NCBI GenBank assembly: GCA_942491945.1
Contig: CALODD010000116.1
Coordinates: 1,008-65,007 of the forward strand
Origin: an uncultured Gammaproteobacteria bacterium
Lineage (GTDB): Bacteria > Pseudomonadota > Gammaproteobacteria > JAJDYQ01
Length of the DNA: 64,000 nucleotides
Direction: 5' to 3'
Of this stretch, positions 22,690 through 60,748 are shown piece by piece (the first letter of the stretch is position 1; every line of letters starts with the position of its first letter). The notes beneath the pieces are model-generated. The model ran no database searches. It saw nothing but the letters and a program-made list of their open reading frames with translations, and was not told where the DNA came from. The position numbers were made by a program, and so were the translations under genes.

Positions 22690-25386
22690 ATGAATACTAT
22701 TCGTAACTGGCATAATAAAACCGCGGAAGAAACATTGTCCGCACTAAAGACCACCCCTTCGGGTTTGAACGAATCCGATGTTAAACAACGACTAGCCGAT
22801 GTCGGTTTCAACAAGCTGCCAGAACCAAAGCGCAAGAATGTTTTTCTGCGCTTCCTGTCTCACTTCCATAATATCCTGATATACGTGCTTTTAGGCGCAT
22901 CTGTTATTACGGCGTCGCTGGGACATATAGTTGATACGTTCGTCATCATTGCCGTAGTTATTATCAATGCGATTATCGGATTCTTGCAGGAGGGTAAGGC
23001 TGAAAAGGCCATGGATGCGATACGGCATATGCTCGCATTGCGTGCCGCAGTCATTCGTGATGGCAAGCGTCAAACCATAATGGGTGAACAACTGGTACCC
23101 GGGGATATAGTGTTACTGGAAGCGGGTGACAAGGTGCCAGCAGATTTGCGCTTGTTGGAAAGCCATGGGTTACAGATCCAGGAATCGATTCTTACCGGTG
23201 AGTCTGTAGCGGTAGAAAAGCAAACGGCATCTGTTGACGATCAGGCCGCGCTCGGCGACCGTGTTTGCATGGGCTTCAGTGGGACGACGGTTACCTACGG
23301 TCAAGGTATGGGTGTGGTGGTTGCCACGGGGGCCAACACGGAAATCGGGCGTATCAGCGGTTTGCTCTCCGAGGTTCAAACGCTTAATACACCACTAGTA
23401 GCACAAATGGCGGTTTTCGCCCGCTGGCTTACCCTGTTTATCATCGCCATTGCCATGATGATTTTGGTATTTGGCCACTTTGTGTCACATCTAACCTTCA
23501 GCGAACTGTTCATTGCGGTGGTGGGCCTTTCAGTGGCCGCGATACCAGAAGGTTTGCCTGCCGTGTTAACCATCACCCTGGCAGTAGGTGTGCAGGCCAT
23601 GGCGCAGCGCAACGCTATCGTCCGGCGGCTCCCTGCCATCGAGACTTTGGGCTCGGTCTCGGTGATCTGTTCCGATAAAACCGGTACGCTTACTCGCAAC
23701 GAGATGAACGTAACGTCCATTGTTACAAGTGAAGACCGTTTTGACATAACCGGTGTTGGTTATGAACCAGTTGGAGATGTCAAATGCAATCAACAAGCAG
23801 TCGAGGTGGAGGCTCATCCAACACTACAATATCTGGGACTCGCGGCCGCGCTTTGCAATGATTCCGAGCTGGTGAAACAGGAAAACAGCTGGGTTGGGCA
23901 AGGCGACCCAATGGAGGCCGCTTTGCTTGCGTTTTCAGGTAAGGTTCGCGTGGACGACGGTGAGGCACGTGAACAATGGTCACGCACCGATGTGATACCT
24001 TTCGACTCCAAGCATAAATACATGGCAACGCTGAACCATGACCATGAAAACCACGCCTTTATCTTCATTAAGGGCGCACCAGAAATCATCCTTTCCATGT
24101 GTAGCAGTCAACGTGTTGCTAATAATGAAACTAGAATACTGGATATTGACTACTGGCAGGAAAAGGCAGAGACAATCGCAAGGGAGGGACAGCGTGTCCT
24201 GGGCTTCGCGCTTAAAACGGTGAATCCAGAGCATCCCGTGCTCGAACACTCTAATGTACAGGATTCACTTGTCTTCCTGGGGTTGGTAGGTCTTATTGAT
24301 CCTCCGCGATCTGAGGCCATACAAGCTATCGCCGAGTGCCACCGTGCAGGTATTGATGTGAAAATGATAACTGGTGATCATGCAGGGACTGCAGCAGCTA
24401 TCGGCAAACAGCTTGGTTTGTGGCATGGGGACAAGGTATTAACGGGGGCAGAGCTGGATAAACTGGACGATGCGGCACTCGAATCAATAATAAACGACAC
24501 AGGTATATTTGCTCGCACCAGTCCTGAACATAAATTACGTCTAGTGATGGCACTTCAGGCAAACAGCATGACTGTTGCCATGACGGGAGACGGCGTTAAT
24601 GATGCCCCGGCATTGAAACGTGCCAGTGTCGGTATTGCCATGGGTAAAAACGGCAGCGAAGCGGCAAAGGAGGCCTCCGAAATTGTATTGGCCGACGACA
24701 ATTTTGCCACCATCGTAGCCGCCGTTAAAGAAGGAAGGACGGTATACGACAATATAAAAAAAGTCATCAGCTGGACATTGCCTACCAATGCCGGCGAGTC
24801 CATGACGATCATACTTGCCTTATTGCTCGGATTGAGTCTGCCCATTACACCTATTCAGATTCTTTGGATAAATATGATTACTGCCGTAACTCTCGGCATT
24901 GCGCTGGCCTTCGAGCCTGCGGAAGAAGGTACCATGCGCCGCCCACCACGCCATCGCAATCAGGGACTACTCGGTGGTGGACTGCTATGGCATATCGTGT
25001 TCGTCGCAAGTCTGTTTCTGGCTTGCGTATTTGGAGCTTATGAGTATGCGATCATGCAAGGCTATTCAGAAAACCTGGCTCGTACGATTGCCATGAATAC
25101 GCTGGTCGCACTGGAAATATTCCATCTTTTATTCATCCGCAACATGAATACAAAGTCATTAAGCTGGAAAGCCATACGTGGTACCCGTATTTTATGGATA
25201 TTAATCGTCACTGTGACTATCGGACAGGCCGCAATCACCTATGTACCCTGGCTTCAAAGCGTGTTCGAAACTGAAGCAGTAAGTTTGTTTGACGTTATAT
25301 TGATCGTCTTTTTAGGCATACTTTTGTTTATGATCATTGAGTTCGAAAAACAATTGCGACTTCGCATACTGAAAAAACCGTTTTAA
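22690..25386 (+). CDS. Cation-transporting P-type ATPase (type II, Ca2+/Mg2+-like)
   Basis: DKTGTLT, TGDHAGTA, MTGDGVNDAPALK; 898 aa with about 10 TM segments. Its stop codon lies inside an attC-like site. Confidence 0.85.
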   Translation: MNTIRNWHNKTAEETLSALKTTPSGLNESDVKQRLADVGFNKLPEPKRKNVFLRFLSHFHNILIYVLLGASVITASLGHIVDTFVIIAVVIINAIIGFLQEGKAEKAMDAIRHMLALRAAVIRDGKRQTIMGEQLVPGDIVLLEAGDKVPADLRLLESHGLQIQESILTGESVAVEKQTASVDDQAALGDRVCMGFSGTTVTYGQGMGVVVATGANTEIGRISGLLSEVQTLNTPLVAQMAVFARWLTLFIIAIAMMILVFGHFVSHLTFSELFIAVVGLSVAAIPEGLPAVLTITLAVGVQAMAQRNAIVRRLPAIETLGSVSVICSDKTGTLTRNEMNVTSIVTSEDRFDITGVGYEPVGDVKCNQQAVEVEAHPTLQYLGLAAALCNDSELVKQENSWVGQGDPMEAALLAFSGKVRVDDGEAREQWSRTDVIPFDSKHKYMATLNHDHENHAFIFIKGAPEIILSMCSSQRVANNETRILDIDYWQEKAETIAREGQRVLGFALKTVNPEHPVLEHSNVQDSLVFLGLVGLIDPPRSEAIQAIAECHRAGIDVKMITGDHAGTAAAIGKQLGLWHGDKVLTGAELDKLDDAALESIINDTGIFARTSPEHKLRLVMALQANSMTVAMTGDGVNDAPALKRASVGIAMGKNGSEAAKEASEIVLADDNFATIVAAVKEGRTVYDNIKKVISWTLPTNAGESMTIILALLLGLSLPITPIQILWINMITAVTLGIALAFEPAEEGTMRRPPRHRNQGLLGGGLLWHIVFVASLFLACVFGAYEYAIMQGYSENLARTIAMNTLVALEIFHLLFIRNMNTKSLSWKAIRGTRILWILIVTVTIGQAAITYVPWLQSVFETEAVSLFDVILIVFLGILLFMIIEFEKQLRLRILKKPF

Positions 25387-25452
25387 CAAGACGCTGCACC
25401 GGACGGCAATTCCGCTACGCTCCATTGTCGCCGGTGAGTTTATGCGTTATGT
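25381..25452 (+). repeat. attC-like site
   Basis: TTTTAAC (overlapping the ATPase stop) ... GTTATGT. Inner stem CACCGGACGGCAAT / ATTGTCGCCGGTG. Confidence 0.6.
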
Positions 25453-25491
25453 TCCCAACCCGATGAGTGTAATCTATTTATAGGGTAGATC

Positions 25492-26028
25492 ATGAATCAC
25501 AAGATTCTCGATAAAAACAGCCAAGAAGAAGTGACAAGTCTTTTTACCTCTGTTTTCACCGCATCTGAAGGCGAGAAAGAAGGAAGGCTAATTGGTCATC
25601 TTGCCTCAGAACTATCTTCAGGAATCGACGATGAAGAAATAATATGTTTCGGAGCATATGAAGAAGAATCAATCATTGGAGCGATTTTCTTTACTCGTCT
25701 TCGATTCAACCAAGCCCTTCAGGCTTACATGCTTGCTCCTGTTGCAGTTAGTACAAAACATCAGGGTAAAGGCGTAGGACAGGCACTTATTAAGTACGGT
25801 CTTAATGAACTAAAAAAACGATCTGTCGCTGTTGTTATTACATATGGAGATCCATCTTTCTACTCCAAGGTGGGGTTTCAAGCTCTGTCAGAAAATATCA
25901 TCCAGGCTCCACTGAAACTTTCTCTGCCAGAAGGTTGGCTGGGCCAGTCACTAACGGAACAGCCAATTCCTACTATCAATGAACGACCTAGATGCGTTAA
26001 GGAATTCAATGATCCTGTTTACTGGTAA
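25492..26028 (+). CDS. GNAT family N-acetyltransferase (cassette)
   Basis: HQGKGVGQALIKYGLNELKK acetyl-CoA binding motif. Confidence 0.75.
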   Translation: MNHKILDKNSQEEVTSLFTSVFTASEGEKEGRLIGHLASELSSGIDDEEIICFGAYEEESIIGAIFFTRLRFNQALQAYMLAPVAVSTKHQGKGVGQALIKYGLNELKKRSVAVVITYGDPSFYSKVGFQALSENIIQAPLKLSLPEGWLGQSLTEQPIPTINERPRCVKEFNDPVYW

Positions 26029-26036
26029 TTACAAGA

Positions 26037-59746: not shown

Positions 59747-60340
59747 ATGCGGAGAAAAGATGTGGACTTTTATAACGATCCTTTAAAAGTCGATGAATAT
59801 GAAAAAATCTGCGAAGGGTACGACGGCACAGAACTATATAAAGTGTTAGATCAGTATCTTGCGGAACAATCTACCTTGCTAGAAATAGGTAGCGGTCCTG
59901 GTAATGATATTAATTATTTGCTTAAGAAATACTTAGTTACGGGTTCAGATTTATCCGATGAATTTCTTGCTAGATGTAAAAAAAGATTTCCAGGTATACC
60001 TTTCGTACAGTTAGATGCGGTATCAATCAATATAGATAAAAAATTTGATTGTGTGTATTCAAATAAGGTGTTGCATCACTTGACTATAGAGCAATTAGAA
60101 AAGTCATTTAAACGACAACAAAAAGTGATTCAAGAAAATGGCATATTTGCACATACATTTTGGTTAGGAGATAAAGAATTTACAATGGAGGGTATGTTGT
60201 TCATGTTTCATGATCGAGAACGGTTAATCAGCCTGGTTGCTAAATATTTTACGATTCTCGATACCCATGACTATGAAGAATTCGAAGAAGGTGACTCAAT
60301 TTTTGTTATCGCTCAAAACTGTGCGGAAAATTACGGCTAA
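59747..60340 (+). CDS. Class I SAM-dependent methyltransferase
   Basis: LLEIGSGPGNDINYL ... FDCVYSNKVLHHL. Confidence 0.75.
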   Translation: MRRKDVDFYNDPLKVDEYEKICEGYDGTELYKVLDQYLAEQSTLLEIGSGPGNDINYLLKKYLVTGSDLSDEFLARCKKRFPGIPFVQLDAVSINIDKKFDCVYSNKVLHHLTIEQLEKSFKRQQKVIQENGIFAHTFWLGDKEFTMEGMLFMFHDRERLISLVAKYFTILDTHDYEEFEEGDSIFVIAQNCAENYG

Positions 60341-60394
60341 TAATCTACATCAGCGGATGGGGCTATAACATGCTGATGGACCGGGGCGTTAGAT
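60335..60394 (+). repeat. attC site
   Basis: GGCTAAT (containing the stop) ... GTTAGAT; stem CATCAGC / GCTGATG. Confidence 0.6.
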
Positions 60395-60632
60395 GTCGAC
60401 GGTATTGATTAAATCTATATGTTTAATATTAGGAACTTACACAACATTGATTCTTATTGGAATAATTCCTGTAATTATTTTCTGGATAATAAGTATTATT
60501 CTTTTTATAGTTTCCCGGCTCTCAAATAAAATTAAATTATTCTCAGAATGGTCGTTACTCCAGTTCTTATTAACATTAAGTGTTGCCCTGGGAATACCAT
60601 ATTTACTTTTGTTAGCAAGTCCCGGATTCTGA
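60393..60632 (+). CDS. Hypothetical small 3-TM membrane protein
   Basis: Hydrophobic 79-aa ORF starting at the attC right core. Confidence 0.45.
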   Translation: MSTVLIKSICLILGTYTTLILIGIIPVIIFWIISIILFIVSRLSNKIKLFSEWSLLQFLLTLSVALGIPYLLLLASPGF

Positions 60633-60637
60633 AAGTA

Positions 60638-60748
60638 GGCTAACAATTAAACAAACCACGCAGAAATAAGTGAGTGAAAAATGATATTTAATTCTATTAC
60701 CATCACCCAGGAAGACGAACTCACAGATCATCAGCAATTGCATTAAGG
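60638..60748 (+). repeat. attC-like site with a degenerate right core
   Basis: GGCTAACAATT ... CAATTGCATTAAGG. Confidence 0.4.

Follow-up and report, generated by a model that had tools for sequence, protein, structure and literature searches.

The window analyzed here, a stretch of 64,000 nucleotides from an uncultured gammaproteobacterium (contig CALODD010000116.1 of assembly GCA_942491945.1), contains an array of integron-type gene cassettes that spans ~38 kb, from the start of a cassette encoding a P-type ATPase (22660) to a lone R'' core (60638). We consider it probable (at about 0.82) that these cassettes belonged to a sedentary chromosomal integron whose integrase was lost by deletion and that the locus is hence a CALIN, a cluster of attC sites without an integron integrase (Cury et al., 2016; IntegronFinder, PMC4889954). 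A preliminary description of the sequence had called the locus a CALIN or, alternatively, an array that had lost its integrase through deletion or relocation; that formulation holds, and the gene order of relatives supports deletion. Window coordinates are used throughout, and L-numbers denote the loci or contigs that were compared with the window (e.g., L017 and L182).

The last conserved chromosomal gene ahead of the array is a NUDIX (NudF-like) gene (22043-22639, + strand; Pfam NUDIX), which anchors the gene order RimO-EndoI-(NapC)-unk133-NudF, where unk133 is a protein of 133 aa. The same flank is found in L017, L018, L019, L021, L182, and L183. We searched for relatives by scanning one genome per species for NudF, and the best match was 83% identical. 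The closest relatives by NudF identity are L017 (83%), L018 (an Arenicellales metagenome-assembled genome [MAG]), and L019 (70%). All three have the order RimO-EndoI-unk133-NudF, and in all three the gene that follows NudF directly, on the opposite strand, is an integron integrase of the TIGR02249 family (446-450 bits; cutoff 265). L183 has the same four genes followed by a TIGR02249 IntI on the opposite strand. The preliminary description expected intI to the left of the array, which is where the three closest relatives carry it. In the relatives that bear intI, attC sites and cassettes lie beyond it, and the first cassette of L019 is homologous to the SnoaL cassettes of the window. In L182, which was recovered from a sample in which the window's species also occurs and in which the 3' end of NudF is 91.5% identical to the window at the nucleotide level, NudF is followed by a pseudogene of intI that is disrupted at codon 404. 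In L021, intI is missing, and the NudF stop codon directly adjoins an attC-like element, after which cassettes follow.

The integrases of these relatives are long, at ~465 aa (L017 9330-10727, L018 10619-12022, and L019 4117-5514, all on the - strand), and carry an N-terminal extension of ~150 aa without a domain match. A search for integrase homologues returned thousands of relatives, and nearly all of the 120 best listed were of this long form; Thiohalophilus and Thiohalomonadales are among the named hosts.

As the preliminary description had reported, the window itself contains no recognizable integrase. A Pfam search of all large open reading frames (ORFs) of the window found no tyrosine-recombinase domain, a tblastn search of the window with the IntI proteins of the relatives gave a best E value of 0.26, and a hidden Markov model (HMM) of 60 IntI proteins, run against all 1479 six-frame segments of the window, gave a best E value of 2.8. 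With the same HMM, the two halves of the L182 pseudogene, used as a control, scored 1e-193 and 1e-41. There is no intI in the 25 kb on the left side. On the right, no integrase was found in the last 3.3 kb of the window (by the six-frame HMM search) or among the called genes of the next 7.6 kb, for which contigs of the same species extend past the window and encode MFS, NYN, MgtE, CorA, serine dehydratase, and carbonic anhydrase proteins. The region homologous to the attI of L017 and L182 is also absent, with just 20 bp between the NudF stop codon and the cassette boundary; the cassette promoter (Pc) was not searched for separately.

Alignment with L182 and L017 resolves the junction to the base. 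The window is homologous to both across the NudF-intI spacer and through the hexamer GTTAAA (22640-22664, with GTTAAA at 22659-22664), and it then diverges into the leader of the ATPase gene. Read in reverse complement, GTTAAA corresponds to the final codon and stop (CTT TAA, Leu) of the intI of the relatives, which have GTTAAAG at this position. The left deletion breakpoint is thus placed at a G|TT site, at 22659/22660.

The right breakpoint is the crossover point of the ATPase cassette, which we could define independently from two other loci. The cassette (22660-25446, + strand; 2.79 kb) consists of an ORF (22690-25386) for a type II, Ca/Mg-like P-type cation ATPase (Pfam and NCBIfam) and the site attC 1. 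Homologues of this ATPase that are 84-93% identical, all of 898 aa, occur in unrelated organisms, with 93% identity in L188 and 84% in Psychromonas ingrahamii (L185, CP000510); a Sulfurimonas homologue is 74% identical. In both L188 (unit at 8001-10763) and Psychromonas (8001-10700), similarity to the window starts exactly at G|TTAAAAC. In L188, it stops at precisely the G of R' in the same attC (E 1.7e-5 with a covariance model, R2, that is described below), and both flanks differ from those in the window. Because the unit has exact G|TT bounds within different flanks in L188 and Psychromonas, we regard the ATPase gene and attC 1 as a mobile cassette of 2.79 kb. It is unusually large for a cassette and has exact G|TT bounds in three unrelated contexts, and the high identity of its homologues across distant taxa suggests wide horizontal spread.

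These observations suggest the following history. In the ancestor, within a clade of uncultured marine-sediment Gammaproteobacteria, an integron would have lain directly downstream of the NUDIX gene, with intI convergent with NudF and with attI and the cassettes running rightward. In the lineage of the window, a deletion would then have taken intI and Pc/attI along with any cassettes that preceded the 5' boundary of the ATPase cassette, so that GTTAAA, the last codon and stop, would be the sole remnant of intI. Because both breakpoints lie at core-type G|TT sites, the likeliest mechanism is a deletion catalyzed by IntI itself, in which the att site before the ATPase cassette would have recombined intramolecularly with a secondary GWT site where the intI gene ends. 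The junction has the geometry expected from an intramolecular att x GWT reaction, in that all DNA between two G|TT sites in direct repeat is gone. A more specific version, which we offer tentatively, is that the integrase deleted its own gene through an attG-like site (GTTAAAG) at its own stop codon, excising intI, Pc, and attI as a circle and creating a CALIN in an instant. Self-excision or loss of the integrase might even be a recurrent route, because two loci of the same clade, L021 (an attC-like element at the NudF stop codon and no intI) and L182 (the pseudogene), point in that direction.

The argument depends on the identity of the intergenic palindromes, which we assessed with covariance models at an acceptance threshold of E<0.05. 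The first model, R1, was built from 11 hand-picked window sites at 25-36 kb, with a structure in which a paired R box, a spacer, and an L box bearing a single bulged base enclose a free center. Two further models, R2 (48 sites) and R3 (86 sites), were trained solely on attC sites that lie beside true intI genes in other organisms. Within the window, R1 found further sites only on the + strand and inside the array. In 80 unrelated metagenome loci that encode relatives of an integron integrase, it gave 51 matches, 45 of them upstream of and divergent from intI and the other six downstream and codirectional, with none arranged otherwise. Downstream codirectional placement is the known layout of integrons with an inverted integrase. 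The external models accepted 14 (R2) and 16 (R3) sites in the window, all on the + strand and within 25381-53707, and their best match outside the array or on the - strand of the window had an E value of only ~0.9. Across the 16 sites, 85.2% of the R- and L-box positions form standard pairs, compared with 70.2 ± 1.8% after shuffling (none of 500 shuffles reached the observed value) and 19-38% when the partners are slid. Compensatory changes on both sides were found in 10 of the 15 pairs, seven of these among the eight L-box pairs, in an alignment that was fitted to the model and therefore favors pairing. The palindromes accepted by the models are genuine attC sites.

Two outcomes that the preliminary description had named as fatal to its proposal, the absence of significant matches to an attC covariance model and the occurrence of the same palindromes between ordinary genes, were thus not seen, the latter within the window. 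The possibility that the palindromes are generic intergenic repeats of the repetitive extragenic palindromic (REP) type or terminators draws on several observations. They have no match in Rfam at gathering thresholds. A plain energy scan, in which we folded all YAAC...GTTR or TAAC...GTTA pairs under constraint, could not tell them from background, as housekeeping genes matched as often as the array, and many of the distal palindromes fold no better than shuffled sequences. A strict regular expression (RYYYAAC...GTTRRRY with perfect core complementarity) recovered just two real sites and is too strict. In the bottom-strand folding that the preliminary description had proposed as a check, the strong set has a mean z of ~-1.5 (14 sites tested) and the 20 weak sites lie near shuffle level (mean ~-0.3), with z below -1.5 only at 36634, 48281, 55134, and 60342. 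Against the repeat or terminator explanation, a model trained on the window finds sites only beside integron integrases and in the expected orientations, and the external attC models match in a strand-specific manner, in the array only and nowhere in the 25 kb housekeeping flank. Unlike dispersed REP palindromes and bacterial interspersed mosaic elements, which occur between ordinary genes, the sites in the window are confined to the array. We give this explanation next to no weight.

The count of ~33 sites in the preliminary description exceeds the number of intact sites, because ~20 of the gaps retain only degraded relics; 16 sites are intact at E<0.05. Eight of the relics are weak matches (E 0.5-7), about a dozen are undetected by the models, and mutated cores such as GTCTTAC, ACCTATC, ATATAAA, GCCCGGC, GTTTTGG, and GTTCGCT are found in the degraded gaps. 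Direct comparisons indicate that the weak sites reflect decay rather than a different attC subfamily. At 53635, the site shares 82% identity with an attC of L021, and its R'' core reads GCCCGGC where L021 has the canonical CGCTAAC. Likewise, the cassettes at 46.1 kb and 33.6 kb are paralogues, and the former has a premature stop codon and an unrecognizable attC. Model scores drop along the array (Spearman rho -0.71, p 3e-6), with 12 of the first 17 sites and two of the last 17 passing E<0.05, and a gradient is also present in the model-free fold energies (the mean z rises from -1.26 in the first half to -0.39 in the second; p 0.025). We conclude that the array is in decay, which is most advanced at the distal end.

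Contigs of the same species were recovered from several ENA, JGI, and NCBI samples and are ~99% identical to the window. They share the cassette order, the NudF-ATPase junction, an insertion sequence (IS) of the IS110 family in attC 2, and a frameshift in the ADH cassette, and no differences of the kind produced by integrase shuffling were found among the contigs compared. The cassettes carry strain-specific internal deletions, and two segments within window cassettes, of 887 bp and 307 bp, are missing from the other strains. Without integrase and Pc, the array would have been frozen, its cassettes gathering frameshifts, internal deletions, and truncations while the attC sites eroded, and remodeling after the loss would have been left to IS110-family elements that target attC and to an IS256.

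The IS110-family element in attC 2 (~26045-27655; transposase 26532-27575, - strand) encodes a protein with DEDD_Tnp_IS110 and Transposase_20 domains (Pfam) that scores 211 bits, against a cutoff of 140, with the NCBIfam model NF033542 ("RNA-guided transposase"). The element sits just 3' of R'' and is present in all of the same-species contigs. Two different IS110-family elements are polymorphic in attC 6 of other strains (L008/L190 and L009/L191), where they follow ACATAACAA. Insertion points follow the TAAC of R'' in three attC sites, as three independent insertions. A sequence resembling the left end of the IS (ACATATCAGCC) is also found after the R'' of the ATPase cassette in Psychromonas. 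The IS256-family fragment (39312-40512, + strand; Pfam Transposase_mut) is specific to the window, where it replaced 587 bp comprising the 3' end of a DUF2391 gene, an attC, and the 5' end of a VIT1 gene; both cassettes are intact in L177-L181. The 887 bp segment (35514-36400), which all other strains lack, continues an NhaA-like ORF and then becomes G-rich and of low complexity (36000-36340, with G20 at 36172-36191); this G-rich part looks like an assembly or sequencing artifact.

Several points weigh against a history of integrase-mediated deletion followed by decay. The two breakpoints share six bases (GTTAAA), and a microhomology-mediated deletion would therefore give the same product. In L044 (an Ectothiorhodospiraceae MAG, 10001-13532), an ATPase homologue with 50% identity and no attC lies right after NudF and is oriented in the same way; this could be a coincidence, or the adjacency of NudF and the ATPase could be older than we assumed. 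The gradient of fold z along the array is weaker than that of the scores (rho 0.33, p 0.054), and the score gradient may be exaggerated in part, since the initial recruitment of the external training sites relied on a model that had been seeded with proximal sites. Some of the frameshifts in the window, including that in the KatG gene, may be sequencing errors, because KatG is intact in other assemblies (L178 and L181). Finally, the integrase search covered the window and its right flank, and an intI elsewhere in the genome or a mobile integron acting in trans is compatible with its outcome. Prompted by L044, we also considered the ATPase as a native neighbor of NudF and did not adopt this as our main reading, as the ATPase with its attC recurs with exact G|TT bounds between unrelated flanks.

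The last of these points leads to a split integron, in which intI and attI would have been carried to another part of the genome by a rearrangement, and the integrase encoded there, or one on a mobile integron, would serve the array in trans. About 16 attC sites still look intact, and about half of CALINs are found in replicons or genomes that also code for IntI (Cury et al., 2016; PMC4889954). However, the cassettes keep their direct orientation beside a retained 3' tip of intI, which points to a deletion and not an inversion; the order of the cassettes is identical across samples, with IS insertions and internal deletions as the differences found; and a sister lineage shows intI decaying in place. 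We therefore regard a split integron as rather unlikely. Still less probable, in our judgment, is that the CALIN was built de novo by an integrase encoded elsewhere, which inserted cassettes at a secondary, attG-type site beside NudF. IntI is able to insert cassettes at genomic GWT sites (bioRxiv 10.1101/2022.09.11.507474), and the left junction is indeed a G|TT, but in relatives precisely this junction is occupied by a complete integrase gene, some cassettes are common to them and the window, the hexamer GTTAAA that was left behind matches the stop region of intI, and the assembly of a 38 kb array of nearly 40 units at a secondary site is improbable. Loss of intI by deletion from a sedentary integron thus remains the reading that we favor.

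The 16 sites accepted by the models, all on the + strand, begin with attC 1 (25381-25452; R2 39.9 bits, E 1.4e-7; R3 E 5.9e-9), whose R'' (TTTTAAC) includes the ATPase stop codon and whose R' is GTTATGT. It is followed by attC 3 (30230-30314; R3 E 0.037, R2 E 0.13; fold z -0.29), which has a degenerate R'' (GTCTTAC); attC 4 (30763-30828; R2 50 bits, E 4.9e-10; fold z -4.3); and attC 5 (31500-31580; R2 E 6e-7). A GFA cassette precedes attC 6 (32029-32086; R2 E 1.1e-4), the site with the IS110-family insertions in other strains, and a GNAT cassette precedes attC 7 (32586-32660; R2 E 3.6e-8). A cassette that holds only a tiny ORF is closed by attC 8 (32815-32911; R2 E 1.2e-3; fold z -3.1), and the YefM/YoeB cassette by attC 9 (33484-33561; R2 E 5.6e-5). 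Then come attC 10 (33942-34036; R2 E 9.8e-6) and, past a cassette for a CopZ-type zinc-finger protein, attC 12 (35037-35109; R2 E 2.8e-4), which has weak neighbors at 34541-34599 (R3 E 6.6) and 35262-35333 (E 0.52). The more distal sites are attC 15, past the cassette for a CMAS-type methyltransferase (37936-38012; R2 E 0.031, R3 E 0.013); attC 16 (39136-39242; R3 E 0.034); attC 17, with R' GTTCGCT (41103-41162; R2 E 1.3e-5, R3 E 2.5e-8); attC 19, past the KatG cassette (44333-44406; R2 E 0.04); attC 25 (48744-48869; R2 E 0.042, R3 E 0.013); and attC 27 (53635-53707; R2 E 0.002), the last site supported by a model and the one with R'' mutated to GCCCGGC. The site attC 2 (26037-27705, + strand) is cut by the IS110-family element, and its 3' half (27649-27705) is a weak model match. 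Beyond attC 27 there are degraded relics at ~54244, 55134, 56030, 56728, 57488, 58024, 58215, 58581, 59672, and 60342, with model E>1 or no match and fold z mostly ~0. The apparent end of the array is the partnerless R''-like core GGCTAAC (60638-60644, + strand), and no model match lies beyond it. Of the bounds given in the preliminary description, 25381-60748, the start therefore moves 2.7 kb further left, to 22660, and the end corresponds to this lone core.

Housekeeping genes fill the first 19.6 kb of the window (1-19.6 kb), among them those for YdbH, lipopolysaccharide-core glycosyltransferases, and O-antigen ligase as well as rimO. The genes after rimO encode endonuclease I, a NapC/NirT cytochrome, unk133, the NUDIX protein, and the 898 aa P-type ATPase. 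From the ATPase stop codon to ~60.64 kb, we read nearly 40 short units in the sequence, with ORFs almost all on the + strand, parted by imperfect palindromes of 53-140 bp that begin with an RYYYAAC-like core and end with a GTTRRRY-like core; co-oriented short ORFs separated by such palindromes were also what the preliminary description had noted. Past 60.7 kb, small + strand genes continue (GGACT, PpnP, glyoxalase, RidA, tautomerase, and GFA), and the palindromes are absent. These genes (60760-64000; 10001-13000 in L001) resemble cassette cargo and, speculatively, may be old cassettes that have become fully domesticated.

The preliminary description held that most cassette proteins could not be assigned a role; in fact, most have recognizable Pfam domains. 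The products recognized are two GNATs, GFA, the YefM/YoeB pair, the CopZ-type zinc finger, two NhaA fragments, methyltransferases, VIT1, KatG, a GltS-like/CDGSH protein, two EncFtn-like proteins, a quinone-oxidoreductase pseudogene, SnoaL, MarC, VF530, cupin, GDT1, DsrE, and fragments of a β-carbonic anhydrase; the identity of the TspO cassette is taken from the annotation of other contigs. We submitted 10 proteins without a significant Pfam match (nine cassette ORFs and unk133) to PADLOC, which returned no defense-system match and only coiled-coil noise, and about nine cassette proteins are thus without a family or a PADLOC match.

One cassette contains two genes, for an FAD oxidoreductase (27850-29415) and an MBL-fold hydrolase (29440-30228), and is closed by attC 3. 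The toxin-antitoxin cassette (32912-33561, + strand) encodes YefM/Phd (32977-33219) and YoeB (33213-33479), as identified by Pfam. The KatG cassette (42036-44193) has a GC content of 58% and is frameshifted in the window. The two EncFtn-like (encapsulated-ferritin-type) cassettes lie at 48900-49187 and 53303-53629, and an encapsulin shell gene is not nearby. A block of three genes on the - strand (49320-51820), for an AhpC/TSA peroxiredoxin, a TetR protein, and an OYE flavin oxidoreductase (Pfam), has a model-supported attC on neither side; this interruption of the + strand array (49320-52300) could be an inverted multigene cassette or an unrelated insertion. The distal cassettes (54218-60394, + strand) encode TspO, a 221 aa protein without an assigned role, SnoaL, MarC, VF530, cupin, GDT1, DsrE, the β-carbonic anhydrase fragments, a methyltransferase, and a small membrane ORF (Pfam).

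In inactivated sedentary chromosomal integrons, such as those of Xanthomonas, a fixed location is shared among relatives, the integrase has been inactivated recurrently, and a static array carries a toxin-antitoxin cassette. The locus described here is alike in its fixed site in related species, the recurrent inactivation of its integrase, its static array, and its toxin-antitoxin cassette; it probably descends from such an integron and works in the same way. It differs in that the integrase was removed cleanly to its last codon, without a pseudogene, in that the attC sites are heterogeneous and do not form a homogeneous family, and in its host, an uncultured sediment gammaproteobacterium related to Arenicellales. 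Compared with a complete integron, the array has the attC sites but lacks an adjacent TIGR02249/IntI-specific integrase and an attI. Sedentary chromosomal integrons are defined by presence in all genomes of a species or by >19 attC sites (Cury et al., 2016); the array was present in every same-species contig recovered, and it has 16 attC sites by model, or ~36-38 units with relics included.

The IS110-family element resembles the IS1111-attC and other IS110-family elements that target attC in its DEDD transposase (NF033542) and its insertion just 3' of R'', a likeness that rests on transposase family and position. IntI activity at secondary (attG, GWT) sites offers a parallel for the junction, as both breakpoints in the window are G|TT and one is an independently defined cassette crossover point; the published events at such sites are intermolecular insertions (bioRxiv 10.1101/2022.09.11.507474), whereas we infer an intramolecular deletion of intI for the window.

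As a CALIN, the locus is typical in having at least two co-oriented attC sites (16 here) with spacing <4 kb proximally, no intI within the clustering distance (4-10 kb) and neither intI nor an intI pseudogene within 10 kb, and cargo mostly unrelated to antibiotic resistance. It differs in that the array is much larger than usual, as only 6.6% of CALINs exceed 10 attC sites (PMC4889954), and in that its origin can be traced by synteny. Loss of intI has been listed as one possible origin of CALINs, with traces of intI near only 5% of them and none near the other 95% (PMC4889954). For the present locus, this origin is supported by synteny, and the gene order of L021 and L182 suggests that such losses recur within the clade. 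At one conserved chromosomal site, the ancestral state can be aligned with an intermediate (the sister pseudogene) and with the end state, and each breakpoint is placed to the base at a G|TT site of the integrase type, whereas most CALIN origins are untraceable. If the proposed mechanism is correct, self-excision or loss of the integrase could be a general route to many of the CALINs that have no trace of intI nearby. Rather than a novel type of system, the locus is a clean natural example that leaves the concept of the integron unchanged, and it displays the aftermath of integrase loss as an array that is fixed throughout the population, with eroding attC sites and cassettes and active IS110-family elements that target attC.

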